A stretch of 64,000 bases of DNA from Escherichia phage vB_EcoM_Schickermooser, in the sequence record NC_048196.1. One strand, 5' to 3'. The notes under the pieces were generated by a model, which made no database searches, was not told the origin of the DNA, and saw only the letters and a list, made by a program, of their open reading frames with translations. Shown piece by piece: positions 50,545 through 62,756 of the stretch. Position 1 is the stretch's first letter, and each line of letters begins with the position of its first letter. The position numbers were made by a program, and so were the translations under genes.

Positions 50545-50652
50545 GGTATCGCCCTTTCTTTGTTGTGCGCCCTGGTTGGCGCGGTAGAAAGATAATAGCC
50601 CTTTTCTTTATATATAGCAAGCAAAAAGAAAATAAAAAAGATTGAAAAATGG

Positions 50653-50711
50653 TTGACGTTAACCAGACGGCGGCGTAGTATTCATCTTGTAGGGCGGCAA
50701 TGGTGCCGCTC
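50653..50711 (+). promoter_or_regulatory. promoter-hairpin cassette (TTGACG-17-TAGTAT, hairpin GGGCGGCAATGGTGCCGC)
   Basis: First copy of the repeated unit; hairpin starts 8 nt after the -10 hexamer. Confidence 0.6.
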
Positions 50712-50730
50712 ACTATTTGGAGTTAAGATC

Positions 50731-50928
50731 ATGGCAACATTGCACATTGTGGCGAAAGCTGGACAAATCAACGTAGTGGTAAACGGTTTTACTGAGTTCA
50801 GTCACCCCCAGGATGATCATGAAACGGTTTTATCTTTCATTGATTCCCTGTTAGAAATGGGAGTCATTACAGAAGACCAGCACGCTACAAAATGCAAGCG
50901 CGTTAATCAAATTGCAGGAATAGAATAA
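50731..50928 (+). CDS. hypothetical small protein (65 aa)
   Basis: GGAG RBS; ORF-track N-terminal extension LVGRQWCRS is translation of the hairpin. Confidence 0.5.
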   Translation: MATLHIVAKAGQINVVVNGFTEFSHPQDDHETVLSFIDSLLEMGVITEDQHATKCKRVNQIAGIE

Positions 50929-50934
50929 AAACTA

Positions 50935-50993
50935 TTGACAACAAACAACAACCTGATAAGATGTATCACATAGGGCGGGAAGTGGTTTCCCGC
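50935..50993 (+). promoter_or_regulatory. promoter-hairpin cassette (TTGACA-16-TAAGAT, hairpin GGGCGGGAAGTGGTTTCCCGC)
   Basis: Consensus hexamers at canonical spacing; GC-rich stem-loop 8 nt downstream of -10. Confidence 0.65.
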
Positions 50994-51018
50994 TCGTAAC
51001 AGAAGAGAGATTATCATC

Positions 51019-51291
51019 ATGGCATCATATAGCGCAACAATGATCGTAGCTGGCACAACTGGTAAACCTATGAGCGGTGGCGGATCTTTCGCTAATATCA
51101 ATATTGACGGGCGTTTATCCCTGGACGCAGCGATCGCTATTGCACGGGAAACATTTAAGAAAGAATGTAATTTCAACAAGCAAGATTATCTCGGTTTCGC
51201 TATTGAAAAAACCGCGCGCTTTGTTGATTATAAAAGCCCGAAAATGGTTGATACTACACTAAAAGCGCAAGATGTAGCGTTTTTGCTTTAA
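51019..51291 (+). CDS. hypothetical small protein (90 aa)
   Basis: AGAGAG RBS; follows cassette. Confidence 0.55.
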   Translation: MASYSATMIVAGTTGKPMSGGGSFANINIDGRLSLDAAIAIARETFKKECNFNKQDYLGFAIEKTARFVDYKSPKMVDTTLKAQDVAFLL

Positions 51292-51294
51292 GGC

Positions 51295-51350
51295 TTGACA
51301 TTAACGAATAATTTGTTAATATGTTACATAAAGCGGGAATAGTTCCCGCT
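51295..51350 (+). promoter_or_regulatory. promoter-hairpin cassette (TTGACA-16-TAATAT, hairpin AGCGGGAATAGTTCCCGCT)
   Basis: Variant hairpin without the TAGGG lead. Confidence 0.6.
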
Positions 51351-51367
51351 ATTTGTAAGGTGGTAGA

Positions 51368-51625
51368 ATGTTTTACATCAAATTAAAAGGTCACGTGATC
51401 GCGTTCAAAGATAACGCTTTTTACAGATTAGCAAAATATGCGTTAATACATCCCCACTATGTTTATATAAGGGGGCGTGATGAAATAAATATCTTTGATC
51501 AAACAACATGCGAGAACATCGAGATCCGCAAGGTTGGCGTACGTGATTATCGTACATCTTTCTACCCTTGCAAGGATTCAGCAAGTCTTTTTAAAGTATG
51601 CCAATTGTTGAAAAAAGGTGGTTAA
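51368..51625 (+). CDS. hypothetical small protein (85 aa)
   Basis: AAGGTGG RBS. Confidence 0.55.
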   Translation: MFYIKLKGHVIAFKDNAFYRLAKYALIHPHYVYIRGRDEINIFDQTTCENIEIRKVGVRDYRTSFYPCKDSASLFKVCQLLKKGG

Positions 51626-51626
51626 T

Positions 51627-52184
51627 ATGGGCCGCGAATATGTGATCCAGTCTTGGGTAAAACATGAAGCAGATGATCCGCGCATCATTCCCGATCATCT
51701 TGTCGATGAATCCACGGGCTATAGCGGGGAGCAAATAGGTAACAGATTAGCACGTAGTAACGGCAACGTAAAAGCGCGTTATGTGCGCCCTGGTTGGCTG
51801 GCAAATGGTAACGCTGATTTATCCAGTGCGGAAGATGCGAGCGACGGCGCGAAAGATAATCCTTTGTACAAAGTTGATCCGGCTTTTCGTGTCCTGGATG
51901 AATACCCCAGCAAGATAGCGGCGCTTGATGAAGCACTAGAAAGTAAGCGCATCACCTGGACCGCTTACAACATGGCAAAAAACGTACTTGATGGTAAACT
52001 GATTCAAGCGGAGAGAAAATTAGCCAAAATTGCAGCCATAGCCCAGGAGGAAGACGAGGAGACAACGGAAGAGGAAGAGTACGAAGAGATCCCGCCGTTG
52101 TTGTGTGTTGATGCTTTTCCTGATTATCAGCCGACAGAGGAAGAAAAAAGGATCGCCCTAGAAAACTTTGAAAATAGTCTTTGA
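51627..52184 (+). CDS. hypothetical protein with acidic C-terminal region (185 aa)
   Basis: GGTGG RBS before ATG at 51627; acidic tract QEEDEETTEEEEYEE. Confidence 0.55.
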   Translation: MGREYVIQSWVKHEADDPRIIPDHLVDESTGYSGEQIGNRLARSNGNVKARYVRPGWLANGNADLSSAEDASDGAKDNPLYKVDPAFRVLDEYPSKIAALDEALESKRITWTAYNMAKNVLDGKLIQAERKLAKIAAIAQEEDEETTEEEEYEEIPPLLCVDAFPDYQPTEEEKRIALENFENSL

Positions 52185-52239
52185 CATATCGCCGCCACTA
52201 GCATAATATTTACCACGTAGGGCGGCAATGGTGCCGCTC
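52181..52239 (+). promoter_or_regulatory. promoter-hairpin cassette (TTGACA-17-TAATAT, hairpin GGGCGGCAATGGTGCCGC)
   Basis: -35 overlaps stop codon of upstream gene. Confidence 0.6.
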
Positions 52240-52266
52240 ATAGTGAAATTATACAAGAGGCTTACA

Positions 52267-52362
52267 ATGATTAATAAAGAAAATAGCTTGACGGTTGGAA
52301 CGATTAACGGTATCATTCTAGCCGTTCCATTTTGGATTGTAGTAGCGGCTATTATTTTCTAA
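52267..52362 (+). CDS. small hydrophobic peptide (31 aa; not in ORF track)
   Basis: Hand-translated MINKENSLTVGTINGIILAVPFWIVVAAIIF; AAGAGG RBS; sits between two cassettes. Confidence 0.4.
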   Translation: MINKENSLTVGTINGIILAVPFWIVVAAIIF

Positions 52363-52370
52363 AAATATTC

Positions 52371-52431
52371 TTGACAACGTTTTTTAATCTGATAAGATGT
52401 ATCACATAGGGCGGCGGAATACTTCCCCGCC
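52371..52431 (+). promoter_or_regulatory. promoter-hairpin cassette (TTGACA-16-TAAGAT, hairpin GGGCGGCGGAATACTTCCCCGCC)
   Basis: Same architecture. Confidence 0.65.
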
Positions 52432-52452
52432 AAAACAAAAAAGGGTAACACA

Positions 52453-52815
52453 ATGAGCAAGCAAATCAATACTATCATGTTTAATCTGGTATCTTTCCGT
52501 GAAGATATGAAAAATTTACCACGTGAAACGGTTGATATTCATGTTTCAGCTTATCGCGCCCTTATTGACATGTTACCGCTAAAACGTGATCAACATGCCG
52601 CTAACATGATGCTTAATGCTATGCTTAAAAAGATGATTCAAACGGATCTCATCCTGGCGTATGAGTATCAAGGGCGCTTATATGCTACTTACAACAAGGC
52701 GGTACCTGGTCTGGGAAGTACCGAAGAGTTGCACGGCTTAAACCTGGATCAGAACACTTGGGATAGTATGCGCCGCGTTATGGTATGGGCCGAAAGCGGT
52801 AAAATTTACGAATAA
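52453..52815 (+). CDS. hypothetical protein (120 aa)
   Basis: AAGGG RBS. Confidence 0.55.
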   Translation: MSKQINTIMFNLVSFREDMKNLPRETVDIHVSAYRALIDMLPLKRDQHAANMMLNAMLKKMIQTDLILAYEYQGRLYATYNKAVPGLGSTEELHGLNLDQNTWDSMRRVMVWAESGKIYE

Positions 52816-52820
52816 AACGG

Positions 52821-52877
52821 TTGACACTGTTTAAAATTCTGGTATAGTTTATCACGTAGGGCGGCAATGGTGCCGCC
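52821..52877 (+). promoter_or_regulatory. promoter-hairpin cassette (TTGACA-17-TATAGT, hairpin GGGCGGCAATGGTGCCGCC)
   Basis: Same architecture. Confidence 0.65.
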
Positions 52878-52897
52878 AACAATAAAAGGTTAACATC

Positions 52898-53077
52898 ATG
52901 ACTATCATTGCAAAAACTGAGATTATAGGTTTAGATTCGATCCTCCTGGCTTATGAGGAAACTTTAAAAATGTATGTAGTGACCTATGGTGATTATGTGC
53001 GTGAATACGAATACATTGATCTTGCTTTCGAATGTTACATTCGCCAGGTCAATAAAGCCTATAACGATTATCGTTAA
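52898..53077 (+). CDS. hypothetical small protein (59 aa; not in ORF track)
   Basis: Hand-translated MTIIAKTEIIGLDSILLAYEETLKMYVVTYGDYVREYEYIDLAFECYIRQVNKAYNDYR; AAGG RBS. Confidence 0.45.
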   Translation: MTIIAKTEIIGLDSILLAYEETLKMYVVTYGDYVREYEYIDLAFECYIRQVNKAYNDYR

Positions 53078-53096
53078 AAGTTTTAGTCTTATACTA

Positions 53097-53148
53097 TTGA
53101 CAATGAGTGATAGTATAAGCATAATAACTTTTATCGGGAATACTTCCC
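53097..53148 (+). promoter_or_regulatory. promoter-hairpin cassette variant (TTGACA-17-CATAAT, hairpin GGGAATACTTCCC)
   Basis: Shorter stem. Confidence 0.5.
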
Positions 53149-53173
53149 ACTAACCAAAAAAGAGAGTAATATC

Positions 53174-53539
53174 ATGGCTATTAATATCAATGTTTCCTCT
53201 TATGCTACCCTGGCTGACACGGCTAAAATTGAATTGTCCAGCATTGAGGCGGTGCATATTAGCGCCCGTCGTTGGTTTCAACAGTCCTACGGTAACACAT
53301 ATTTTTCTTTAATGGTTGACGTTGAGATCGGCGGTAAACTGATCGAGGTGGTTAACGTTCCGTTTCAATATGGCTATGGTGATCATTTTGATACCGTCGC
53401 CCTGGAAGAATTTAGCAAGGTTATCAACCTTGAGGGCAAGGAATTTTCACGCGGCGCGTATCTTTCCCGTTTTTGCCGTGACAATGGGATCACTGTATAC
53501 AGTCATGCAAGCGATGTAAAACGTAAAAAAGATTTATAA
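53174..53539 (+). CDS. hypothetical protein (121 aa)
   Basis: AGAGAG RBS. Confidence 0.55.
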   Translation: MAININVSSYATLADTAKIELSSIEAVHISARRWFQQSYGNTYFSLMVDVEIGGKLIEVVNVPFQYGYGDHFDTVALEEFSKVINLEGKEFSRGAYLSRFCRDNGITVYSHASDVKRKKDL

Positions 53540-53545
53540 AAAGCA

Positions 53546-53604
53546 TTGACAGCACGAATAAAAAGAGTAAACTGTATTACATAGAGAGCGGGAACACTTC
53601 CCGC
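53546..53604 (+). promoter_or_regulatory. promoter-hairpin cassette (TTGACA-16-TAAACT, hairpin GCGGGAACACTTCCCGC)
   Basis: Same architecture. Confidence 0.6.
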
Positions 53605-53628
53605 CTCACTGAAAAAGAGAGAAAAATC

Positions 53629-53868
53629 ATGGCTAAATCTAAAATGTACAACGGTCACAAAAACAAAACTCATTGGAATGTAAGCCTGTGGATTAATAAC
53701 GATGAGGGATTGTATCGGTTTGCACTGGGATTGATCAATGAGTGCGGTAATAAAGATCAGGCGGCTGATTTAATGTGCTACCGTTTGAAACAGGATGGAA
53801 TCACTACAACGCCAGACGGCTTTAAGTATAGTAAAACTGCAATCCGCGCCGCTATGGTTGGAATGTAA
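53629..53868 (+). CDS. hypothetical small protein (79 aa)
   Basis: AGAGAGA RBS. Confidence 0.55.
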   Translation: MAKSKMYNGHKNKTHWNVSLWINNDEGLYRFALGLINECGNKDQAADLMCYRLKQDGITTTPDGFKYSKTAIRAAMVGM

Positions 53869-53963
53869 AGGAGACATAAAAATGAAACATCGTTCGACCT
53901 ATCTCACAAAACGTTTTAGCTTAGATCATAAATTGGGCTATTACGGAAGAAATAGAAAATAAT

Positions 53964-54023
53964 TTGACAACGTTTAAAATTAGTGTAAGATGTATCACAT
54001 AGGGCGGGAAGTGGTTTCCCGCC
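53964..54023 (+). promoter_or_regulatory. promoter-hairpin cassette (TTGACA-16-TAAGAT, hairpin GGGCGGGAAGTGGTTTCCCGCC)
   Basis: Near-identical to the 50935 copy. Confidence 0.65.
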
Positions 54024-54045
54024 AACAACAGAGAGATTAAAGATT

Positions 54046-54273
54046 ATGGCTATCAATATTGTTCGCGTATCCGGCACCGTTGGCACTTCCCAGGTTGTAG
54101 CAGTTGTAACAAACAAAAAGATTAATGATGTATGTGAGATCTTGAATAAGTGGGCTATTGCTAATTTTGGGGAATATGCAAGCGTCGAGTACATCGAATC
54201 CTACCAGGTGCCAACCATCAGCCTGACCGATCTCAACGTTGATCGCCTGTTATGCCTGGATGAATTAATCTGA
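54046..54273 (+). CDS. hypothetical small protein (75 aa)
   Basis: AGAGAG RBS. Confidence 0.55.
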   Translation: MAINIVRVSGTVGTSQVVAVVTNKKINDVCEILNKWAIANFGEYASVEYIESYQVPTISLTDLNVDRLLCLDELI

Positions 54274-54282
54274 AAAAGATTG

Positions 54283-54340
54283 TTGACACGGGAAAGAAAA
54301 AGAGTAAACTGTATTACGTAGGGCGGCAATAGTGCCGCTC
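54283..54340 (+). promoter_or_regulatory. promoter-hairpin cassette (TTGACA-16-TAAACT, hairpin GGGCGGCAATAGTGCCGC)
   Basis: Same architecture. Confidence 0.65.
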
Positions 54341-54363
54341 ACAACAGAAGAGAGATTATCACG

Positions 54364-54576
54364 ATGGCTAATATCCGCACACTGTTAAAAAATGCAAGTC
54401 AAGTTTTATTTTCTGATCACGATCATTTTAATAAAGATATTACAGGCGTGAAGAATATCAAAGATGTAAAAAGTGTTATGGGTATATATTGCAATGTTAA
54501 ACGTGTTGGAACGTTCGGTGATAAAGTATTGTACCAATCAGGTGATTACAATTTTACTTTGACGATTATTTCATAA
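54364..54576 (+). CDS. hypothetical small protein (70 aa)
   Basis: AGAGAG RBS. Confidence 0.55.
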   Translation: MANIRTLLKNASQVLFSDHDHFNKDITGVKNIKDVKSVMGIYCNVKRVGTFGDKVLYQSGDYNFTLTIIS

Positions 54577-54581
54577 AACGC

Positions 54582-54643
54582 TTGCAATACTGCAAAAATA
54601 AAGTAAACTGTATTACATCAAGGCGGCGGAATGGTCCACCGCC
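54582..54643 (+). promoter_or_regulatory. promoter-hairpin cassette (TTGCAA-16-TAAACT, hairpin GGCGGCGGAATGGTCCACCGCC)
   Basis: Same architecture. Confidence 0.6.
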
Positions 54644-54667
54644 TAACAAAGAGAAGAGGAAAATATT

Positions 54668-54835
54668 ATGATCACTTTCGCTACCCGTGAAGCCGCTCGC
54701 AACGTTGCACGTAAAGTTAACGCCGCCAACCTGGGCGCTACGCTTAAAGCCCCTGTAAAAGATGAATCAGGAAAATGGATCTTCCCTGGTCTACGTCATG
54801 CTGACAAGTTAGGTACTTTAAGCCTTAAAAAATAA
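54668..54835 (+). CDS. hypothetical small basic protein (55 aa; not in ORF track)
   Basis: Hand-translated MITFATREAARNVARKVNAANLGATLKAPVKDESGKWIFPGLRHADKLGTLSLKK; AGAGGA RBS. Confidence 0.45.
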   Translation: MITFATREAARNVARKVNAANLGATLKAPVKDESGKWIFPGLRHADKLGTLSLKK

Positions 54836-54838
54836 TCG

Positions 54839-54876
54839 TTGACTTTTCGTTATAGCGCCTTATAATGGGCGCTATA
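54839..54876 (+). promoter_or_regulatory. promoter TTGACT-16-TATAAT with inverted repeat TATAGCGCC/GGCGCTATA flanking the -10
   Basis: Consensus -10 embedded between 9-bp inverted repeat arms (54851-54859 and 54868-54876); operator-like. Confidence 0.55.
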
Positions 54877-54913
54877 GAGAAGAGAAACCAATCACCAGAA
54901 AGAGAGAAAGAAA

Positions 54914-55132
54914 ATGGCAATCCGTAAAATTAAAGTTGTTTGCATTGAATCAACTGGTGGCGCTTTTGTAGTTGGTCAGAAATATAATGCGGTTTTAATG
55001 GGCATGGATTGGAAGGTTAAAGGTCTTGATGGTTACGAATACGGCACTACTCTCGGATTGCGTGGTCGAATCGGATACGTGAGCTTAGACAACAAAGAAA
55101 AATTTGTTTTCGATATTGTTGTGAGTAAATAG
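54914..55132 (+). CDS. hypothetical small protein (72 aa)
   Basis: AGAGAGA RBS. Confidence 0.55.
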   Translation: MAIRKIKVVCIESTGGAFVVGQKYNAVLMGMDWKVKGLDGYEYGTTLGLRGRIGYVSLDNKEKFVFDIVVSK

Positions 55133-55211
55133 CATGAATTGCTAAAGACTAATCTGCAAATTGCTGTATTATCAACTAATTGAAACGAAACACATAAAGA
55201 GAAAAAACATT

Positions 55212-55433
55212 ATGATCACTTTCGCTATTGTCGCCGTTGTTGCTGGTCAAGTTTACGTAAACGATACATTCACCACAGAAGACAAGGCCGCAGGAGATAT
55301 AACCGCCGTTTACAATGAGTGCAAGGCAGTAGAAAGGATGTTAGCGCCTTGTATGCTAATGAGTGAACGCCAGGACGGAATAACAGTATTTACTAACATT
55401 GAAACAGGGTACCAAATGGTAGTAACAAAATAA
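55212..55433 (+). CDS. hypothetical small protein with hydrophobic N-terminus (73 aa)
   Basis: AAGAGA RBS before ATG at 55212; N-terminus MITFA shared with 54668 ORF. Confidence 0.5.
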   Translation: MITFAIVAVVAGQVYVNDTFTTEDKAAGDITAVYNECKAVERMLAPCMLMSERQDGITVFTNIETGYQMVVTK

Positions 55434-55436
55434 AGC

Positions 55437-55493
55437 TTGACACCGATTTAATTTTTAGTAAACTGTTACACGTAGGGCGGGAATAGTTCCCGC
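55437..55493 (+). promoter_or_regulatory. promoter-hairpin cassette (TTGACA-16-TAAACT, hairpin GGGCGGGAATAGTTCCCGC)
   Basis: Same architecture. Confidence 0.65.
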
Positions 55494-55512
55494 TCAAAAA
55501 GAGAGAAAGACC

Positions 55513-55866
55513 ATGAAAGCACAAAATGCAATTAAAGAGTACATCCTTGCCGCTATCGATTTTAATGATTACGGTATTACAACCGAAAAAGAGAAGATCG
55601 CGGAATTGATGCGCCGTTTTAATTCCGAGTACTGGTACCCTGATAACCAATCACGTTTTAATTATAGTATTGTTAAAGCACTTGCATCATGGTTACAAGG
55701 TTTGCCATCAGATATCAATATCGCTTTCGAATATTGGGAAATTGATCGCTTGTTAACATCCTGGGGATACATTAAAGAGAATAGCAGCGATGATAAAATC
55801 CAACGAGAAAGGGAAAATTATTGGCTTTATATTGCAGGCGTGATCCTTGCTTGCTCTTATGAATGA
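55513..55866 (+). CDS. hypothetical protein (117 aa)
   Basis: AGAGAGA RBS. Confidence 0.55.
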   Translation: MKAQNAIKEYILAAIDFNDYGITTEKEKIAELMRRFNSEYWYPDNQSRFNYSIVKALASWLQGLPSDINIAFEYWEIDRLLTSWGYIKENSSDDKIQRERENYWLYIAGVILACSYE

Positions 55867-55872
55867 TAAACC

Positions 55873-55927
55873 TTGACAATTTTACAAAACAGTTTAAATT
55901 AACAATATAGCGGCAATGGTGCCGCTC
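55873..55927 (+). promoter_or_regulatory. promoter-hairpin cassette variant (TTGACA-17-AAATTA, hairpin AGCGGCAATGGTGCCGCT)
   Basis: Weak -10 but conserved hairpin. Confidence 0.5.
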
Positions 55928-55945
55928 ATATGAAGAGGAAACAAA

Positions 55946-56092: not shown

Positions 56093-56098
56093 CATAAC

Positions 56099-56127
56099 AA
56101 GGGCGCATCAAGCGCCCTTTCTTTTTA
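56099..56127 (+). terminator. rho-independent terminator (GGGCGC-ATCAA-GCGCCC + TTTCTTTTT)
   Basis: 6-bp GC stem followed by T-run. Confidence 0.8.
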
Positions 56128-56147
56128 CATGTAGAGGATAAACAAAA

Positions 56148-56333: not shown

Positions 56334-56338
56334 AAACG

Positions 56339-56395
56339 GTTGACAGCATAACCAAGTATGATAAGATGTATCACGTAGGGCGGGAATAGTTCCCG
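56339..56395 (+). promoter_or_regulatory. promoter-hairpin cassette (TTGACA-16-TAAGAT, hairpin GGGCGGGAATAGTTCCCG)
   Basis: Same architecture. Confidence 0.65.
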
Positions 56396-56418
56396 ACCAC
56401 ATAAAAGAGAAAAACATT

Positions 56419-56631
56419 ATGACCACTATCACAACAAAACAAGAAAAAATTATTACAGACATTGCCGCAGTAGCCGCTATTGCTATTATTGGTACCTACT
56501 ATGACACCGCGCGACCTTCCTCCTTACATGAGATCGCCGCCGTTGCATCAGTTGGCGTACTGTTTTACGTTGGTAAACGCTATTTATCACCAATGATTAA
56601 CAAGCTGACACCGTGGAAAAATAAAGGTTGA
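56419..56631 (+). CDS. small membrane protein (70 aa)
   Basis: AGAGA RBS; hydrophobic segment IAAVAAIAIIGTYY. Confidence 0.55.
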   Translation: MTTITTKQEKIITDIAAVAAIAIIGTYYDTARPSSLHEIAAVASVGVLFYVGKRYLSPMINKLTPWKNKG

Positions 56632-56682
56632 TCCTGTTTTATATTGTGTTATAGTTATCGTGTAGGGCGGCAATGGTGCCGC
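56628..56682 (+). promoter_or_regulatory. promoter-hairpin cassette (TTGATC-16-TATAGT, hairpin GGGCGGCAATGGTGCCGC)
   Basis: Same architecture. Confidence 0.6.
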
Positions 56683-56702
56683 GCCCCTTTGAGGATGCAA
56701 TC

Positions 56703-56987: not shown

Positions 56988-57004
56988 AATAATTCAGAAA
57001 AGGC

Positions 57005-57061
57005 TTGCAATAATTTTCAGACCGTGTATATTTAATTCATAGGGCGGCGGGAATAGTTCCC
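57005..57061 (+). promoter_or_regulatory. promoter-hairpin cassette (TTGCAA-16-TATATT, hairpin GGCGGGAATAGTTCCC)
   Basis: Same architecture. Confidence 0.55.
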
Positions 57062-57084
57062 TAAGCAAACGAGAGGATTACACG

Positions 57085-57204: not shown

Positions 57205-57214
57205 GGTGCGTACT

Positions 57215-57376
57215 ATGAAAACAACAGACATTATCAAAGAGATCGCCCTTGCCGCTGACGTTGAGATCGAGGAAGTGATCGCGCTCAACCTTACAGAAAA
57301 CGATCTGCGCAACTATGAAGCGGAAAGCGTGAAAGCAAGCGGCGCGGTCCTGGCATATAATCCGGCTAACAAGTAA
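57215..57376 (+). CDS. hypothetical small acidic protein (53 aa; not in ORF track)
   Basis: Hand-translated MKTTDIIKEIALAADVEIEEVIALNLTENDLRNYEAESVKASGAVLAYNPANK; AAGG RBS. Confidence 0.4.
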   Translation: MKTTDIIKEIALAADVEIEEVIALNLTENDLRNYEAESVKASGAVLAYNPANK

Positions 57377-57385
57377 GGGGATAAC

Positions 57386-57496
57386 ATGAATCCGAAAGAT
57401 ATGCAAGCATGGAAAGGGTACGACGATCTAAGCGCCTTGCGCAATAAGTCAAGCCGTAACCTTAGACGATTGCAAGCAAAGAAAAAGAAAAAATAG
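57386..57496 (+). CDS. hypothetical small basic peptide (36 aa; not in ORF track)
   Basis: Hand-translated MNPKDMQAWKGYDDLSALRNKSSRNLRRLQAKKKKK; AAGGGG RBS. Confidence 0.35.
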   Translation: MNPKDMQAWKGYDDLSALRNKSSRNLRRLQAKKKKK

Positions 57497-57497
57497 T

Positions 57498-57555
57498 TTG
57501 ACAAGTCCGCTTAATCTGATAATATGTATCTTGTAGGGCGGCAATGGTGCCGCTC
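57498..57555 (+). promoter_or_regulatory. promoter-hairpin cassette (TTGACA-16-TAATAT, hairpin GGGCGGCAATGGTGCCGC)
   Basis: Same architecture. Confidence 0.65.
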
Positions 57556-57574
57556 ACAAGAAGAGAGAAAAATC

Positions 57575-57859
57575 ATGAAAATCACAAAAAGCCTAACTAA
57601 TTATGCAGCACGTCGCGGATTATGTTTAACCGTTGAAAACTTAGGGAAAGAAGACTTTTTGTGTTTTTGGGAGCTTGAAAACGATTGCGAGTGGATGTTT
57701 TCCTATTCTATCTGCGAAGATCAAAACGGTTGTTTGTTAACCTGGCGCGGTAATATTTATTTACCGGAAGAAATTAAAGAGGAATTACCAGGTACGATCA
57801 TGACAGAGAGACAGCTTAAGGAAATGATTAATTTTGTATGGCAAAACATTAAAAAATAA
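57575..57859 (+). CDS. hypothetical protein (94 aa)
   Basis: AGAGAGA RBS before ATG at 57575. Confidence 0.55.
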   Translation: MKITKSLTNYAARRGLCLTVENLGKEDFLCFWELENDCEWMFSYSICEDQNGCLLTWRGNIYLPEEIKEELPGTIMTERQLKEMINFVWQNIKK

Positions 57860-57860
57860 T

Positions 57861-57921
57861 TTGACAGCAGGCAAACAACGTAGTAAAGTTTACCACATAG
57901 GGCGGCGGAATGGTCCACCGC
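57861..57921 (+). promoter_or_regulatory. promoter-hairpin cassette (TTGACA-17-TAAAGT, hairpin GGGCGGCGGAATGGTCCACCGC)
   Basis: Same architecture. Confidence 0.65.
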
Positions 57922-57944
57922 TCACAACAGAAGAGAAACAAATC

Positions 57945-58115
57945 ATGATCCCGACTATGTTTTATGTATCGCGCAAAGGTCACAATATTTTTTGGTCTGA
58001 AGATTTAAATGAAGCCATGACGTTTGCCCGTGATCGTGTCGCTATCGGTGGCGTTAACATCACCGTAACCGATGAAAACGGCATTGAATACTATAACGGC
58101 AACGATGAAGAGTAA
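57945..58115 (+). CDS. hypothetical small protein (56 aa)
   Basis: AGAGA RBS before ATG at 57945. Confidence 0.5.
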   Translation: MIPTMFYVSRKGHNIFWSEDLNEAMTFARDRVAIGGVNITVTDENGIEYYNGNDEE

Positions 58116-58122
58116 TCAACAA

Positions 58123-58140
58123 GGCGGGATTAATCCCGCC
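58123..58140 (+). promoter_or_regulatory. perfect palindrome GGCGGGATTAATCCCGCC (hairpin or operator)
   Basis: 18-bp perfect palindrome between two genes; no following T-run, so not a canonical terminator. Confidence 0.45.
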
Positions 58141-58159
58141 TGTATTAAAGGGTAATATA

Positions 58160-58297
58160 ATGAAAACTTTCAACGCAACAGCCTCGACAATTGGTTATAT
58201 TATTACAGTGCAAGCCGTTGACCTGGTAGCGGCAGCAAACAAGATTAAAAAGATGATCCCAACAGGCAGCGAATTTTCCGTTTGGGAAGTAAAATAA
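58160..58297 (+). CDS. hypothetical small protein (45 aa; not in ORF track)
   Basis: Hand-translated MKTFNATASTIGYIITVQAVDLVAAANKIKKMIPTGSEFSVWEVK; AAGGG RBS. Confidence 0.4.
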   Translation: MKTFNATASTIGYIITVQAVDLVAAANKIKKMIPTGSEFSVWEVK

Positions 58298-58300
58298 ATC

Positions 58301-58358
58301 TTGACAATAGTTTATTACTTGATAGAATGTATTTCGTAGGGCGGCAATAGTGCCGCTC
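58301..58358 (+). promoter_or_regulatory. promoter-hairpin cassette (TTGACA-16-TAGAAT, hairpin GGGCGGCAATAGTGCCGC)
   Basis: Same architecture. Confidence 0.65.
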
Positions 58359-58379
58359 ACAACTAAAAGAGAAATCATC

Positions 58380-58574
58380 ATGGCGCTTAAAAAATTAACA
58401 AGCAATACTCGTTGGGATGAAATCGACGGGGAAGTATACATTTTCGCCCGTAAACCAGGTGATCAAAAATGGTCAAAGGCTTTTACTTGCCACCCTGCAA
58501 CAATAGATCTAATAAAAAGTAAAGGTTTACGTGAAGCAGTAGCAAGGAGTTTACTGATCCCTTGTAAAAAATAG
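58380..58574 (+). CDS. hypothetical small protein (64 aa)
   Basis: AAGAGA RBS before ATG at 58380. Confidence 0.55.
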   Translation: MALKKLTSNTRWDEIDGEVYIFARKPGDQKWSKAFTCHPATIDLIKSKGLREAVARSLLIPCKK

Positions 58575-58637
58575 TTTGACAATACGCGGTTATCTGGTAA
58601 AGTGTACGACATAGGGCGGGGCAATAAGGCAACGCCC
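58575..58637 (+). promoter_or_regulatory. promoter-hairpin cassette (TTGACA-17-TAAAGT, hairpin GGGCGGGGCAATAAGGCAACGCCC)
   Basis: Variant, longer hairpin. Confidence 0.55.
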
Positions 58638-58655
58638 ACTAATGAGGGTAAAATC

Positions 58656-58760
58656 ATGTTAGAGAAAATTTTCACGGTTGTAATAGTGGGCTTGGCGTTA
58701 TCGGTTGGAGTGGTTGCAACTATGGCTAATATGATCCTATCTTCCCACGGTATCGGTTAA
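58656..58760 (+). CDS. small membrane peptide (34 aa; not in ORF track)
   Basis: Hand-translated MLEKIFTVVIVGLALSVGVVATMANMILSSHGIG; GAGGG RBS. Confidence 0.4.
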   Translation: MLEKIFTVVIVGLALSVGVVATMANMILSSHGIG

Positions 58761-58770
58761 GGTGAAACAA

Positions 58771-58986
58771 ATGATCACGAACAAAACAGGCAAAACGGAA
58801 TTTTTACGCGGCTTACAAGTTGGTAAGCCTGAGATCTGGCATTGCACGAAGTCCGCGCATAATGAAATGAAAGATTTCACCGCTACTTTACAACGTGTTA
58901 AAATATCTATTACGCAGAAAAAAGCCTTGTTAGTAGTAGAAAACGAGATCCCGCAAACTATTATTATTGTCGAGCGTACAGCATGA
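58771..58986 (+). CDS. hypothetical small protein (71 aa)
   Basis: Start ATG 58771 or GTG 58762. Confidence 0.5.
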   Translation: MITNKTGKTEFLRGLQVGKPEIWHCTKSAHNEMKDFTATLQRVKISITQKKALLVVENEIPQTIIIVERTA

Positions 58987-59369
58987 AAACAGAAATCATT
59001 ATTGAAATCATCAACGGTTATAAAGAAGCCTTTATTTTTGCTGAATCAGCCAGGGATCATGAAGGTGATTTTATTGATAACTTAGACGATTATGATTTTT
59101 CTCCTGGCGCGGATGAACGGATCGCCCAGGATGTAACAGCCTTTATTAATGCTAATCTTGCCGCTATCTCTGAGGCAATGAGCGACGGCGCAACAGCCAA
59201 CCAGATCGGGAATGATTTACATTTTACCCGTAACGGTCACGGCGTAGGATTTTGGGATCGCCCTGAAATATACACCACTAACACGGCGAACCGCCTAACA
59301 AATGCAGCTAAGTTTATGCCGAACGTGTCGGCTTACATTGGTGAAGATAATTTGATTTATATTGAATAA
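58983..59369 (+). CDS. hypothetical acidic protein (128 aa)
   Basis: ATGA overlap with upstream ORF. Confidence 0.55.
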   Translation: MKTEIIIEIINGYKEAFIFAESARDHEGDFIDNLDDYDFSPGADERIAQDVTAFINANLAAISEAMSDGATANQIGNDLHFTRNGHGVGFWDRPEIYTTNTANRLTNAAKFMPNVSAYIGEDNLIYIE

Positions 59370-59375
59370 AAAGTA

Positions 59376-59433
59376 TTGACACAGATCGCCAGTGTGATAA
59401 TATTTACCACGTAGGGCGGCAATGGTGCCGCTC
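59376..59433 (+). promoter_or_regulatory. promoter-hairpin cassette (TTGACA-16-TAATAT, hairpin GGGCGGCAATGGTGCCGC)
   Basis: Same architecture. Confidence 0.65.
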
Positions 59434-59452
59434 CCCGAAAAAGGTAAACATT

Positions 59453-59644
59453 ATGAAAACTATCTCCTACCTGGAATCGAATAACATGTTTTTTGCGCCC
59501 GTTGATGAAATCATCGAGGCTTTAAACAATGAAGAGGGGATCAATGGTTTATCTTATAGCGAGCTTTTAGGAATGGTTGCAGCAAATGAAGAGCTTGCTT
59601 ACTATGTTGAAAATTTTGATGAAGCTGTAATCTTTACAAAATAA
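59453..59644 (+). CDS. hypothetical small acidic protein (63 aa)
   Basis: AAGG RBS. Confidence 0.55.
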   Translation: MKTISYLESNNMFFAPVDEIIEALNNEEGINGLSYSELLGMVAANEELAYYVENFDEAVIFTK

Positions 59645-59647
59645 TCC

Positions 59648-59704
59648 TTGATCTAATCTCTTAGATAACTTATATTTAATGCGTAGGGCGGCAATGGTGC
59701 CGCC
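59648..59704 (+). promoter_or_regulatory. promoter-hairpin cassette (TTGATC-17-TATATT, hairpin GGGCGGCAATGGTGCCGCC)
   Basis: Same architecture. Confidence 0.6.
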
Positions 59705-59722
59705 GATAATGAGGAAAACAAA

Positions 59723-60022
59723 ATGGAAACTATCGCTATTGTTACCGTAGAAAAACTGGTTGTTGGTGACGTATTCGCGTTAATGGTGCCTAACAGCAGC
59801 AAGCTGGGCGCTTATGAAGTGATGGACCATAAAAATGAATCATTTGGCGACGGTTGCACAATGGCGGTAAAATCTTTGAAGGATGGAATCACCCGCCAGG
59901 CTAACTGGCACAAAGGGAACCAGGTCGGTTTAATATCCGCTAATTTCTTGCCAGAAGAGCAAACGTTAGACCAACTATCAGGCGGTAAGACGTTAGCCGA
60001 ACTACTGGAAACAGCGATCTAA
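59723..60022 (+). CDS. hypothetical protein (99 aa)
   Basis: GAGGAA RBS. Confidence 0.55.
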   Translation: METIAIVTVEKLVVGDVFALMVPNSSKLGAYEVMDHKNESFGDGCTMAVKSLKDGITRQANWHKGNQVGLISANFLPEEQTLDQLSGGKTLAELLETAI

Positions 60023-60030
60023 TCAACAAA

Positions 60031-60046
60031 GGGGCGGCAACGCCCC
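60031..60046 (+). terminator. hairpin GGGGCG-GCAA-CGCCCC (no U-tract)
   Basis: 6-bp GC stem with GCAA tetraloop after gene stop; function uncertain. Confidence 0.35.
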
Positions 60047-60067
60047 ACATCAGGAAGGGAAAAGATT

Positions 60068-60304
60068 ATGAGTATTGCAACAGTATTAACCGCCGTTAAA
60101 ACCGCTGAATCATCCGGCTTACATGTTGAGCTTATAGATCAACCAGGTGGCGATCTCCTTGTCCAGGTTTACCCGCCGAAAGTAGGGGATGATTATTATT
60201 GGGCTTATTCTGATACGTTCGAACAAGTAGACACGAAAGCGGTAACAGCCTTTATTTTAAAAGCCGTTGAAGAAAATAACTTTCATCATAACATCAATCA
60301 ATAA
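60068..60304 (+). CDS. hypothetical protein (78 aa)
   Basis: AGGAAGGG RBS. Confidence 0.5.
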   Translation: MSIATVLTAVKTAESSGLHVELIDQPGGDLLVQVYPPKVGDDYYWAYSDTFEQVDTKAVTAFILKAVEENNFHHNINQ

Positions 60305-60339
60305 CGCCCCATTAAACGCAATAGGAAGAGGATAGACAC

Positions 60340-60630
60340 ATGAAAAAGATGATCGCAGTAGTTGCCCTGGTTGTTGGTATTAACGCGCCTGTAATGGCTA
60401 ACGATTTGCCGGAATCGATCACGTTAACCGATATCAACGCAGTAAACCGGATCGGTGTTAATTATCGCCTATGCCTTGCCGCTAAAACTTTTAAGGACGG
60501 GGAAACAGAATACCACGGATTCGAGGGAGTCCGGTGCGGTGAGCTTGCACGCGACCTTAAGGAAGATCCAGACCTTGAGGCCATACCGATGACCGTAAAC
60601 GGTAAAGCTTACGTAAACCGCCAACAATGA
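60340..60630 (+). CDS. putative secreted protein (96 aa)
   Basis: GGAAGAGG RBS; signal peptide MKKMIAVVALVVGINAPVMA. Confidence 0.55.
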   Translation: MKKMIAVVALVVGINAPVMANDLPESITLTDINAVNRIGVNYRLCLAAKTFKDGETEYHGFEGVRCGELARDLKEDPDLEAIPMTVNGKAYVNRQQ

Positions 60631-60641
60631 GAAAGGTAATC

Positions 60642-60761
60642 ATGACAATGGGGATCATAGTAGCAACGCTGGCGCTAATCCCCTTCCTGATTAGATATGT
60701 GATAGTAGATCTGGTCCTGGTTATTAGTGACCTGCTATCTTCCATCGGCACACTATTTTAA
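60642..60761 (+). CDS. small membrane peptide (39 aa; not in ORF track)
   Basis: Hand-translated MTMGIIVATLALIPFLIRYVIVDLVLVISDLLSSIGTLF; AAGG RBS. Confidence 0.4.
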   Translation: MTMGIIVATLALIPFLIRYVIVDLVLVISDLLSSIGTLF

Positions 60762-60770
60762 GGGTACATC

Positions 60771-60962
60771 ATGAACGTGGAACAAGTTAGAAAGGTATTA
60801 GCAGCGTTACGCTATCACAACTATAGCAAGGTTAAGAATGATCCTGATTATGTGGATTCAAGCCTGGAAGAAGACACATTGCAAGCTATAAGCCATATGC
60901 AAGAATTGCTTAAGCGTATGACAGAGAAAAACAGATCTGATTATATAGGTGACGAGATCTAA
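60771..60962 (+). CDS. hypothetical small protein (63 aa)
   Basis: AAGGG RBS. Confidence 0.5.
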   Translation: MNVEQVRKVLAALRYHNYSKVKNDPDYVDSSLEEDTLQAISHMQELLKRMTEKNRSDYIGDEI

Positions 60963-60968
60963 AATAGC

Positions 60969-61026
60969 TTGCACAATGTATCTGATAGTGTAAGATGTAT
61001 CACGTAGGGCGGCAATGGTGCCGCTC
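60969..61026 (+). promoter_or_regulatory. promoter-hairpin cassette (TTGCAC-16-TAAGAT, hairpin GGGCGGCAATGGTGCCGC)
   Basis: Same architecture. Confidence 0.6.
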
Positions 61027-61046
61027 ACAACTGGAAGGAAAACACC

Positions 61047-61250
61047 ATGACTACAGCTAACCGCCTGATCGCCGTCCTGAACAAAGCAAAGGCTAACCGC
61101 CTGGATGTTCAAATCAAAGAGCAAGCAAATGGCGAGATCCTTGCTACGGTGTCCGATGGCGGTTATGTATCGGAATCATTTTTATCAGGGAGCTTAGATC
61201 ATCTTGTTTGGAAATTAGAAATTACCGTGGAGGATATGCAGATCATCTAA
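61047..61250 (+). CDS. hypothetical small protein (67 aa)
   Basis: GGAAGGA RBS. Confidence 0.55.
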   Translation: MTTANRLIAVLNKAKANRLDVQIKEQANGEILATVSDGGYVSESFLSGSLDHLVWKLEITVEDMQII

Positions 61251-61255
61251 TCTTT

Positions 61256-61288
61256 ACAAAACAGGGCTTGTTTTTGTCCTGTTTTTTG
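61256..61288 (+). terminator. terminator-like hairpin AACAGG...CCTGTT followed by T6
   Basis: Inverted repeat with large loop followed by TTTTTTGTT. Confidence 0.5.
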
Positions 61289-61424
61289 TTATGCTTATTG
61301 AACGGGCGGCACTGGCAACGGGGGAGGTAATCACCGGACGACCCCGCTATATATTGATAGCTAACACCTATCAAACAACAAAACATCAAAGAGATAAACT
61401 ATCAAATCTTTACAATTCTACCTA

Positions 61425-61483
61425 TTGACACCGGATCACCCTTATATTATTATTTATCACGTAGGGCGGGAATGTTTCCCGCC
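61425..61483 (+). promoter_or_regulatory. promoter-hairpin cassette (TTGACA-17-TATTAT, hairpin GGGCGGGAATGTTTCCCGCC)
   Basis: Same architecture. Confidence 0.65.
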
Positions 61484-61501
61484 TGATTTAGGAGTCACAT
61501 C

Positions 61502-61735
61502 ATGATCGAACAAATTAAAAGCACTAAACCGAACGTTAACGGCAATGTTTCACACTTTATCGGTGATAATGAAAAAGGCACACCATACGCCGCCGTAACC
61601 GTTCAACCGAACGGGGATTATTGGTTTACCGTTTACGGATCTTATTCCTTTGGACGTTCGGCACATGATAAGATCTTGCAAGCGGTTAAGCCTACAGGGA
61701 AGAATATCACAGCAGAAAAATTTTATAAAAAATAG
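61502..61735 (+). CDS. hypothetical small protein (77 aa)
   Basis: AGGAG RBS. Confidence 0.55.
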   Translation: MIEQIKSTKPNVNGNVSHFIGDNEKGTPYAAVTVQPNGDYWFTVYGSYSFGRSAHDKILQAVKPTGKNITAEKFYKK

Positions 61736-61736
61736 C

Positions 61737-61796
61737 TTGCTTTATACACCCTGTTAACTTATAGTTATTGCGTAGGGCAAGCAATACAGCAAGCCC
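61737..61796 (+). promoter_or_regulatory. promoter-hairpin cassette variant (TTGCTT-17-TATAGT, TAGGGCAAGCAATACAGCAAGCCC)
   Basis: Degenerate copy: only a 4-bp stem remains. Confidence 0.45.
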
Positions 61797-61813
61797 ACAA
61801 AGAGGAAAAGAAG

Positions 61814-62182
61814 ATGAGCAAATCAGCAATTAAAGCAGTTGAAAAAGCGCAAGAAGTGATCGCAACGTCCACCACTGGCGCAAAGGTTAATCTCGTTGGT
61901 TATCTGACAGATGAAACTATCCGTAAAAATTGGCGCAACGCTGATTTACTGGCTTGCTTATTGATTAATAGTGTCGCTGATGCTTTCCAGTGTGAAACAG
62001 CCGAGAGCTTGGAGGAAAACTTGTTTGATAATATGGATCAAGCCATTGAAACCTATATACAGTCAAACCTGGATAGCTGGAACAGTAAAACATGGCCTGA
62101 CAGCTTACGCGATACAACTGATCAACTGATCCGCCTTGCCTTGATGGTTGAACGCGATAACGTTCACAACCGCACAAAGTAA
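61814..62182 (+). CDS. hypothetical protein (122 aa)
   Basis: AGAGGAAAAG RBS. Confidence 0.55.
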   Translation: MSKSAIKAVEKAQEVIATSTTGAKVNLVGYLTDETIRKNWRNADLLACLLINSVADAFQCETAESLEENLFDNMDQAIETYIQSNLDSWNSKTWPDSLRDTTDQLIRLALMVERDNVHNRTK

Positions 62183-62190
62183 GATTATAC

Positions 62191-62215
62191 AAGGGCGCGC
62201 ACTAAGCGCCCTTTA
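62191..62215 (+). terminator. terminator-like hairpin AAGGGCGC-GCACTAA-GCGCCCTT
   Basis: 8-bp GC-rich stem; weak U-tract; shares the GGGCGC core with terminators at 56099 and 62757. Confidence 0.55.
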
Positions 62216-62241
62216 ACGTAAAGAGATGTAAATAATGCGCT

Positions 62242-62276
62242 ATCCCCTATTGACAGGGGATCGGCGTTATATTATA
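62242..62276 (+). promoter_or_regulatory. promoter TTGACA-17-TATATT with palindrome ATCCCCT-ATTGAC-AGGGGAT spanning the -35
   Basis: Inverted repeat 62242-62261 encloses the -35 hexamer; operator-like. Confidence 0.5.
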
Positions 62277-62323
62277 TTTAACTCACTGGCAGCAAACAAC
62301 GAAATGAAACAAAGGATAACAAC

Positions 62324-62743
62324 ATGAACATTAAATCAAATAATCCGGCTTACTCTTTCGATAATGCTTTTTGTCACGGGAGCGCCGCTAAAGGCTTCGA
62401 AATTGATGGTAAGCTGGTTATTGTGAACGTTGACGGGGAAGAGGTTGCAGTATATCCGGCAAACGATGTTAAAAGCCGTTTACAGTGCCGCATGGATGTT
62501 ACCGCGTATCAGCTTGATCCGATCCGTGTAGTTGCCCTGGTCCTGGAGGAAGAGATCAAAGCAATGCATCATAGCAATAAGTTTATTGGTGACGCGCAGG
62601 ACAATATGAAAGTATGCCGCAGTAAAGTTAACGAAGCATTGAAAGAATACGGTTTTAAGGATCTGATGATTAAACGTGATGAAAAATTCCGTTTTCGTAA
62701 TGACCTGGCGAACCGGATCTACTCAATCTATGAAGCGTTATAA
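62324..62743 (+). CDS. hypothetical protein (139 aa)
   Basis: AAGG RBS; last recognisable gene before the non-coding terminal region. Confidence 0.55.
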   Translation: MNIKSNNPAYSFDNAFCHGSAAKGFEIDGKLVIVNVDGEEVAVYPANDVKSRLQCRMDVTAYQLDPIRVVALVLEEEIKAMHHSNKFIGDAQDNMKVCRSKVNEALKEYGFKDLMIKRDEKFRFRNDLANRIYSIYEAL

Positions 62744-62756
62744 TCGACAACAAAAC

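Follow-up and report, generated by a model that had tools for sequence, protein, structure and literature searches.

Cassettes of the small-gene array

The Escherichia phage vB_EcoM_Schickermooser (NC_048196.1) carries, within the 64,000-nucleotide stretch analyzed here (the window), a plus-strand array of about 12 kb that holds about 40 small open reading frames (ORFs) of 31–185 aa. The array is organized around a repeated unit of about 75 bp, composed of a promoter, a hairpin and a leader, which we refer to as the cassette. The phage belongs to the phAPEC8 group (Phapecoctavirus) of the Stephanstirmvirinae, myoviruses of about 150 kb, and not to the Straboviridae, in agreement with a first-pass annotation of this DNA that had called it not obviously T4-like. 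The array region is 95–98% identical to that of other Phapecoctavirus genomes.

A mechanical scan of the plus strand found 27 near-consensus sigma-70 promoters between 50653 and 62250, with TTGACA-like and TAnnnT hexamers separated by 16–17 nt. Folding of the next 40 nt showed a GC-rich hairpin beginning about 10 nt past the −10 box in 25 of the 27. Hairpin energies range from −5.5 to about −16 kcal/mol and are −10 kcal/mol or better in 23 of the 25 copies; the hairpins at 53097 (−5.5 kcal/mol) and 57005 (−7.8 kcal/mol) are degenerate. The two promoters lacking a downstream hairpin are 54839, where the −10 box forms the loop of a hairpin, and 62250, which has none. The composite pattern TTGACA-N15-18-TANNNT-N8-11-GGGCGG was observed 14 times against 0.00 expected from 100 shuffles, and TAGGGCGG-N9-CCGC, allowing up to two mismatches, 16 times against 0.68 expected. 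An independent consensus scan gave its highest promoter scores to the cassette sites, an extended −10 TG being present at 10 of them. The first-pass annotation had described about 25 such promoter, hairpin and leader cassettes heading small ORFs; this observation is confirmed and lies far beyond chance.

The remaining sigma-70-like promoters of the window have no such hairpin and stronger GAGGAG ribosome-binding sites, so the hairpin-bearing promoters constitute a distinct class. A single complete cassette lies beyond the array, at 28647 on the minus strand, and heads a gene for a TerC-family integral membrane protein (27597–28571, minus strand; Pfam PF03741, E = 5e-40).

Promoter geometry and the predicted 5′ end

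Each module is composed of an A-rich UP-like tract upstream of the −35 box, the sigma-70 promoter, the hairpin, a leader with a weak Shine-Dalgarno (SD) sequence and a small gene. The hairpin is positioned with respect to the promoter more strictly than to the gene: the distance from the −10 box to the loop center has a standard deviation of 1.6 nt, versus 2.7 nt for that from the loop center to the ATG. Among 21 canonical copies, the R of RTAGGGC is the eighth nucleotide past the −10 hexamer in 16 and the seventh in four. The position of this conserved purine, after a pyrimidine, is the usual start for E. coli RNA polymerase. Transcription would start at the conserved CA or CR (the purine of CAC-R-TAGGG), 6–8 nt past the −10 box, and the hairpin would be encoded from about +4 to +24. 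Promoter geometry predicts 0–5 unpaired nucleotides between the 5′ triphosphate end and the hairpin, which would thereby lie at the extreme 5′ end of the transcript. In the predicted fold of the G-start class, G1-U2 pair with AC 3′ of the stem, leaving the 5′ end fully paired. Folding of the whole 5′ untranslated region (5′UTR) gave z-scores of −2.2 to −4.7, with the hairpin formed and the leader open. The leader is 70% purine and 50% A, compared with 55% and 33% for the whole region.

Two further signals around the hairpin were considered and set aside. With the commonest loop sequence, AAUGG, the hairpin carries an AUG within its loop (50699, 52227, 52866, 55916, 56672 and other copies); the AUG at 56673 shares the reading frame of the ORF that follows and precedes the likely start of that ORF by 30 nt. 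A loop AUG is found in some copies only and its frame is inconsistent, so it is probably incidental as a start codon. A boxA-like GCUCACAACA after the stem bears a partial resemblance only, in a subset of copies.

Selection on hairpin pairing

Pairing was assessed on an ungapped, loop-anchored alignment of equal length (A2) that holds 26 distinct hairpins with 3-nt loops, drawn from the window, phAPEC8, nieznany, phi92 and 121Q. A plain MAFFT alignment of 26 copies (A1) was set aside for pair counts because stem lengths differ and its 3′ arms were mis-registered. In A2, 78.7% of the cells pair, compared with 68.4% in shuffles, and none of 500 shuffles reached this value. The covariance analysis that the first-pass annotation had proposed revealed compensatory changes: the covariation score was 0.323 versus 0.157 when shuffled (0 of 500), and fell to 0.06–0.13 when the partners were slid by 1–3 columns. 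Pair 6–20 is G-C in 16 hairpins, C-G in 10 and unpaired in none, and pairs 8–18 and 9–17 alternate between G-C, A-U and G-U with zero mismatches. The stems hold 25 G·U versus 11 A·C. At the apex, A10, A11, U15 and U16 are invariant and U12 nearly so. The loops vary (UAG, UGG, UAC, CAC, UGU, AUGG, AUAG and GUGGU). When a covariance model built from A2 was run on the window, a given site scored about twice as high on its sense strand as on its antisense strand; at E < 0.01 the matches of the model in the window were eight array copies and 28586–28610 on the minus strand only. This substitution pattern indicates that the hairpin is under selection for pairing and that the motif is strand-asymmetric.

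The cassette hairpin does not resemble an intrinsic terminator. A mean of 1.1 T occurs in the 8 nt after its stem, and a terminator scan of the array flagged none of the cassette hairpins, returning instead 56099, 61258 and 62757, each with at least five T. In the absence of a T-run, or U-tract, this role was rejected. An RNase III site was likewise rejected, since stems of 8–9 bp are too short. Rfam 15 gave no match in the whole window at the gathering threshold. A blastn search of 5,426 complete E. coli genomes with the cassette was negative, which argues that the cassette is not of host origin. The terminators at 56099, 62191 and 62757 do share a AAGGGCGC...GCGCCCTT core, as had been noticed in the first pass; the T-run is poor at 62191.

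Recombination between cassettes in relatives

Window positions 50001–63500 were compared with eight Phapecoctavirus genomes by blastn with chaining of the alignments, yielding about 20 distinct indel or replacement events. An event end was assigned to a cassette if it fell inside one or at most 10 nt away, and cassettes so defined make up 25% of the region. Both ends lay in cassettes in eight of the 20 events (binomial P = 1.3e-5), in seven of them in two different cassettes, and 24 of the 40 endpoints were in cassettes overall (P = 2.5e-6). At the cassette-bounded events the flanking alignments overlap by 17–77 nt in the relative, meaning that one cassette there matches both cassettes of the window. 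Several other events end at terminators or promoter-less hairpins (58128, 61245 and 62760). In four relatives an indel has one of its ends at the atypical cassette 54839–54913.

Two junction cassettes were examined at the level of single bases. Ro121c4YLVW has, in place of 58301...58576, a cassette that combines the promoter of the left copy with the hairpin of the right copy, with the crossover in GTAGGGCGG. In the nieznany cassette that stands in for 54283...54582, one copy gives way to the other within the common TAAACTGTATTAC. Such chimeric junctions are a signature of recombination between copies. Single genes are present or absent across the relatives (54364–54576, 58380–58574, 59453–59644 and 61502–61735), as is a 2.1-kb block, 57553–59683, which nieznany does not have. 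The presence/absence polymorphism at cassette boundaries that the first-pass annotation had predicted is thus found in relatives. Together, the comparisons indicate that the ~75-bp repeats are sites at which whole modules are gained, lost or swapped through copy-to-copy recombination. Of the functions suggested earlier, only a recombination role has direct comparative support, for the cassette as a whole; for the hairpin itself, stabilizer, regulator site and recombination hotspot are not separable.

The same architecture in other phages

Cassettes of this architecture occur beyond the Phapecoctavirus genomes. Phage phi92 (Justusliebigvirus) has at least 14 in its gp225–gp248 array, whose end is about 1.1 kb short of the right terminal repeat as annotated, and encodes homologues of 21 window genes with their order mostly kept. 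The rV5-like slur16 (Vequintavirinae) has a mixed array, with hairpins at some promoters and none at many, and 10 homologues; several of the small array proteins are 97–98% identical there. The jumbo phage 121Q (349 kb, Asteriusvirus), whose backbone is unrelated, contains at least 16 cassettes that follow the pattern TTG(A/C)AA-16-TATAAT-N7-ATCAA-GGGGAGAATAGTTCTCCCC-ACTAAC...AGAGAGA...ATG. Comparison of its positions 130000–179000 with window 51019–61735 identified 10 array-gene homologues of 36–87% amino acid identity in scrambled order, and one 121Q orthologue is preceded by a promoter-less hairpin at about position 9590 of that stretch.

Orthologous genes bear the hairpin flavor of the genome in which they reside and, in a few cases, none. 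This genome-specific flavor indicates that the cassette is homogenized within each genome and is untied to its cargo, and the comparison indicates that the hairpin travels with the promoter and not with a particular gene. In the literature on the motif, phAPEC8, Phapecoctavirus and Asteriusvirus promoters, and PHIRE, we found no description of a +1 hairpin for these phages; the rV5 and CBB papers report sigma-70 promoters only. An Srd homologue (Srd-like activator of RNase E) has been reported in rV5 and could provide a rationale for 5′ protection.

A model for the array and its alternatives

We are quite confident that the units are promoter and 5′UTR-hairpin modules acting as recombination joints. 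With slightly better than even confidence, we further propose that the array consists of portable modules for early gene expression, in which the 5′ hairpin stabilizes and punctuates the mRNA. The promoters would be read by unmodified host RNA polymerase, and the hairpin would shield the early phage mRNAs from 5′-end-dependent decay by RppH and RNase E. As a secondary role, it could provide a stable processing boundary between neighboring cistrons of read-through transcripts. RppH requires unpaired 5′ nucleotides, and Emory, Bouvet and Belasco reportedly found in 1992 that a stem-loop a few nucleotides from the 5′ end stabilizes E. coli mRNA. Stabilization would be the most economical function because 5′-terminal stem-loops block both RppH and the 5′ sensor of RNase E; as the main job of the hairpin, we put it forward tentatively, at a little under even confidence.

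Several observations weigh against this model. Four of the 20 events have neither end in a cassette, such as a 2,156-nt deletion in nieznany (60371–62528), and the placement of indel ends in intergenic cassettes could in part reflect selection against gene-disrupting deletions. Some 121Q and slur16 orthologues have a promoter and no hairpin, which argues that the hairpin is dispensable for expression. Transcript mapping for this phage group was not found in the searchable literature, so that we infer the +1 positions. A start at R leaves 3 unpaired nucleotides in many copies and 5 in 121Q, and 3–5 unpaired 5′ nucleotides may be enough for RppH and RNase E. Finally, the invariant A-A-U-R-G-U-U apex together with the strongly conserved 5′ arm UAGGGCGG exceeds what a pure structural stabilizer needs; this conservation could reflect a binding protein, or merely homogenization between copies.

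The last point leads to the alternative that the hairpin is an RNA operator present on all early mRNAs and read by a phage or host RNA-binding protein or nuclease, for their shut-off or boost as a block. Such a role would fit an apex that is invariant in 26 distinct hairpins of three phage lineages above a lower stem that covaries, a 5′ arm conserved within a lineage far beyond pairing needs, the higher score of the sense-strand model, and the retention by each lineage of its own flavor on orthologues, as for a lineage-specific factor. However, no candidate binder was identified, all 20 array proteins scanned falling in PHROGs families without an assigned molecular function, the loops vary and some orthologues lack the hairpin, and the documented gene conversion among cassettes can explain the sequence conservation. 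We therefore regard an operator as unlikely. Less likely still is an attenuator or insulator that damps read-through from promoters further upstream so that 25 strong promoters in tandem do not add up, as proposed for the promoter-early-stem-loop (PeSL) cassettes of T4-type phages. An RB49/phi1 PeSL stem-loop with no classical U-tract cut downstream lacZ about as much as rrnB T1 did (PMC2839356), and nearly every intergenic space of the array has one cassette-type hairpin, including the promoter-less ones at 58122 and 60031. Yet the scarcity of T after the stem sets the hairpins apart from the terminators of the array, true PeSL stem-loops are located upstream of or inside the promoter (PMC4122927), and a hairpin lying past the promoter of its cassette would also damp the transcript made from that promoter.

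A DNA-level element, be it a phage-specific promoter, a palindromic repressor operator or a cruciform targeting recombination enzymes, appears improbable. The PHIRE promoter label on GTAGGGCGGCAATGGTGCCG in NC_020079 would speak for it, as would an inverted repeat at +1 to +25, a common place for operators, and the one crossover inside the motif. Against this, the fixed distance to a near-perfect sigma-70 promoter makes a second promoter needless, another crossover falls in the −10 region outside the hairpin, and stem length, bulges and sequence vary with compensation, as befits a folded strand, not a fixed site in duplex DNA; the preference for G·U over A·C and the strand asymmetry of the model point the same way. 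We give hardly any credence to a hairpin without present function that spreads as a passenger of the promoter by concerted evolution. Cassettes do recombine and are homogenized within genomes, degenerate copies exist at 53097 and 57005, and some orthologues have no hairpin, but compensatory changes preserve pairing across at least four phage lineages and 23 of 25 copies retain −10 kcal/mol or better.

Beyond portable, stabilized expression modules, a broader and doubtful reading is that the modules form a cross-family gene pool whose hairpin, with its invariant AAURGUU apex, is a tag read by a common factor, either a phage protein that is conserved or a host component of RNA decay or translation. 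The pool would be kept up by exchange among unrelated virulent coliphages, namely Stephanstirmvirinae, Vequintavirinae, the jumbo Asteriusvirus and, marginally, the T4-like Krischvirus. If true, early mRNAs would be marked for protection or timed shut-off, and the hairpin would be more than a passive stabilizer, delimiting a previously unrecognized post-transcriptional regulon.

Genes and edges of the array

All 20 array proteins scanned against PHROGs matched a family, which argues that these are real, conserved phage genes; 19 families are of 'unknown function' and that of ORF 57085–57201 is 'membrane protein' (moron/host-takeover category). The sole Pfam match among 10 ORFs scanned, nine of which are the largest of the array, was DUF7249 in the 79-aa product of 53629–53868. 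The products of ORFs 60642, 57085 and 58656 are tiny hydrophobic proteins, and that of ORF 60340, in the cassette-less stretch 60340–60761, has a signal-peptide-like N-terminus, MKKMIAVVALVVGINAPVMA.

At the upstream edge, positions 50250–50660 form a divergent promoter region: a strong minus-strand promoter at 50278 (TTGACA-17-TATACT) faces away from cassette 1 (50653), and relatives annotate a repeat_region nearby. Past the array, 62800–64000 is about 1.2 kb of non-coding, AT-rich DNA (GC 0.33), with a strong A+C strand bias at 63000–63400 (GC skew −0.28, AT skew +0.31) and short dispersed direct and inverted repeats. This segment weakly matches phi92 just before and into its annotated right terminal repeat, so the array probably adjoins a physical end of the genome. 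All features are listed in Table 1.

Table 1. Cassettes, hairpins and terminators of the window, with the ORFs that follow them.
Feature	Position	Strand	Description
Cassette 1	50653..50730	+	TTGACG-17-TAGTAT, hairpin GGGCGGCAATGGTGCCGCTC, leader; ORF 50731-50928
Cassette 2	50935..51018	+	TTGACA-16-TAAGAT, hairpin GGGCGGGAAGTGGTTTCCCGCTC; ORF 51019-51291
Cassette 3	51295..51367	+	Hairpin AGCGGGAATAGTTCCCGCT; ORF 51368-51625, then 51627-52184 without own cassette
Cassette 4	52181..52266	+	Canonical hairpin; 31-aa ORF 52267-52362
Cassette 5	52371..52452	+	Bulged hairpin GGCGGCGGAATACTTCCCCGCC; ORF 52453-52815
Cassette 6	52821..52897	+	Canonical hairpin, GCCGCC variant; ORF 52898-53077
Cassette 7	53097..53173	+	Degenerate short hairpin GGGAATACTTCCC, −5.5 kcal/mol; ORF 53174-53539
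Cassette 8	53546..53628	+	Hairpin GAGAGCGGGAACACTTCCCGCCTC, identical one in 121Q; ORF 53629-53868 (DUF7249)
Cassette 9	53964..54045	+	ORF 54046-54273
Cassette 10	54283..54363	+	ORF 54364-54576, absent from nieznany (chimeric junction there)
Cassette 11	54582..54667	+	TTGCAA-16-TAAACT, ATCAAGGCGGCGGAATGGTCCACCGCC; ORF 54668-54835
Atypical cassette	54839..54913	+	atagcgcc-TTATAAT-gggcgctat across −10 box, RB49 PeSL-like, no 5′UTR hairpin; ORF 54914-55132
Cassette 13	55437..55512	+	ORF 55513-55866
Cassette 14	55873..55945	+	Hairpin AGCGGCAATGGTGCCGCT, nearer to −10; ORF 55946-56092
Intrinsic terminator	56099..56127	+	AAGGGCGCATCAAGCGCCCTT + TCTTTTT
Cassette 15	56340..56418	+	ORF 56419-56631
Cassette 16	56628..56702	+	TTGATC-16-TATAGT, canonical hairpin; ORF 56703-56987
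Cassette 17	57005..57084	+	TTGCAA-16-TATATT, degenerate hairpin; ORFs 57085-57204, 57215-57376, 57386-57496
Cassette 18	57498..57574	+	ORF 57575-57859; left boundary of the 2.1-kb block that nieznany lacks
Cassette 19	57861..57944	+	ORF 57945-58115
Promoter-less cassette-like hairpin	58122..58141	+	AGGCGGGATTAATCCCGCCT, ahead of ORF 58160-58297; no T-run
Cassette 20	58301..58379	+	ORF 58380-58574, absent from 5 relatives
Cassette 21	58576..58655	+	Hairpin GGGCGGGGCAATAAGGCAACGCCC; ORFs 58656-58760, 58771-58986, 58983-59369
Cassette 22	59376..59452	+	ORF 59453-59644, absent from 5 relatives
Cassette 23	59648..59722	+	TTGATC-17-TATATT; ORF 59723-60022, then cassette-less operon to 60962
Promoter-less hairpin	60031..60046	+	GGGGCGGCAACGCCCC, ahead of ORF 60068-60304; no T-run
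Cassette 24	60969..61046	+	TTGCAC-16-TAAGAT; ORF 61047-61250
Intrinsic terminator	61258..61293	+	Terminator scan
Cassette 25	61425..61501	+	ORF 61502-61735, absent from Ro121c4YLVW
Cassette 26	61737..61813	+	TTGCTT-17-TATAGT, hairpin GGGCAAGCAATACAGCAAGCCC; ORF 61814-62182
Weak terminator hairpin	62191..62213	+	AAGGGCGC-GCACTAA-GCGCCCTT
Promoter without hairpin	62250..62323	+	TTGACA-17-TATATT; ORF 62324-62743
Intrinsic terminator closing array	62757..62789	+	Terminator scan
Isolated cassette outside array	28572..28647	−	TTGACA-16-TAAGAT, hairpin GCGGGGAATAGTTCCCCGC, AAAGAGAGGAGAAAAGA-ATG; heads TerC-family gene 27597-28571

Implications

With these cassettes, the PeSL idea of a regulatory unit that drives accessory genes and also reshuffles them is no longer confined to T4-like phages: it reaches at least three further groups of coliphages that serve in phage therapy. 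The architecture is a different one, the hairpin being a predicted part of the mRNA. A regulatory and recombination module common to several coliphage families had previously been mis-annotated, and recognizing it corrects the GenBank annotation that labels the hairpin as a phage promoter. The analysis also maps about 26 probable early transcription units together with their recombination-prone joints, which is of use in engineering these phages since genes can be taken out or put in at the cassette boundaries, and prioritizes about 40 unknown early genes as candidates for host-takeover or anti-defense functions. With 25 strong promoters and a standard 5′UTR, the array constitutes a natural series for studying 5′ hairpins and mRNA fate during infection.

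Comparison with known systems

Small RNA hairpins shortly past early promoters are also found in lambda nut boxB and HK022 put. Those elements are limited to one or two copies per genome and act in antitermination, with conserved loops that are recognized by N or RNA polymerase, whereas the hairpins described here number 25, one for each gene, vary in their loops and match no Rfam family.

The repeat itself had already been noticed in phAPEC8. Record NC_020079 annotates the very same 20-mer, GTAGGGCGGCAATGGTGCCG, as 'putative promoter determined with PHIRE' at orthologous positions (6001–6020, 6640–6659, 7529–7548 and others), and at some sites the adjacent −35/−10 is separately annotated as 'host dependent promoter determined with MEME'. 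There the 20-mer is read as a phage promoter, without a hairpin, 5′UTR or recombination reading. Every copy of the motif lies 6–7 nt downstream of a near-consensus sigma-70 −10 box, which argues against a phage-specific promoter, and the PHIRE 'promoter' looks like a mis-assigned 5′UTR hairpin.

In its predicted position the hairpin is similar to 5′UTR stabilizers of the ompA hp1 type: a stable hairpin a few nucleotides from the predicted 5′ end, followed by an open leader with the ribosome-binding site and independent of the coding sequence. Each ompA-type stabilizer belongs to a single gene, and experiments have shown its effect on half-life, whereas here a cassette of conserved sequence is repeated and recombines, and the stabilizing role is a prediction.

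The closest known system is that of the PeSLs of RB49/phi1, T4/PST and KVP40/nt-1, described as composite cassettes of promoter and terminator that mediate the shuffling of ORFans as modules (Arbiol et al. 2010, PMC2839356; Comeau et al. 2014, PMC4122927). A further PeSL trait is the excision of mini-circles between neighboring cassettes. In both systems a near-consensus sigma-70 early promoter with AT-rich DNA upstream is joined by a GC-rich stem-loop and followed by SD and ATG, and many copies cluster within a hyperplastic region of small ORFans. Both show cassette-bounded indels and replacements between close relatives, with crossovers inside cassettes, and the hyperplastic region of RB49 contains a homologue of window gene 57575. 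These features uphold the PeSL likeness suggested in the first pass; the position of the stem-loop and the taxon do not. When we scanned the RB49 hyperplastic region, stem-loops lay in the −35/−10 spacer (TTGACAggggatcaccgatccccTATACT) or across the −10 box (gggggtagTAATATaccccc). In PST and nt-1 the stem-loop precedes the promoter, and PeSL stem-loops are reported to terminate transcription coming from upstream (PMC2839356, PMC4122927). These positions place the PeSL stem-loop outside its own cassette's transcript. In contrast, 25 of the 26 window hairpins are downstream of the −10 box, at the predicted 5′ end of their own mRNA, only that at 54839 spanning the −10, and they lack a T-run. The carriers also differ, being Stephanstirmvirinae, Vequintavirinae and Asteriusvirus here and Straboviridae for PeSLs. 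The resemblance of the cassettes to PeSLs is one of kind and not of membership.

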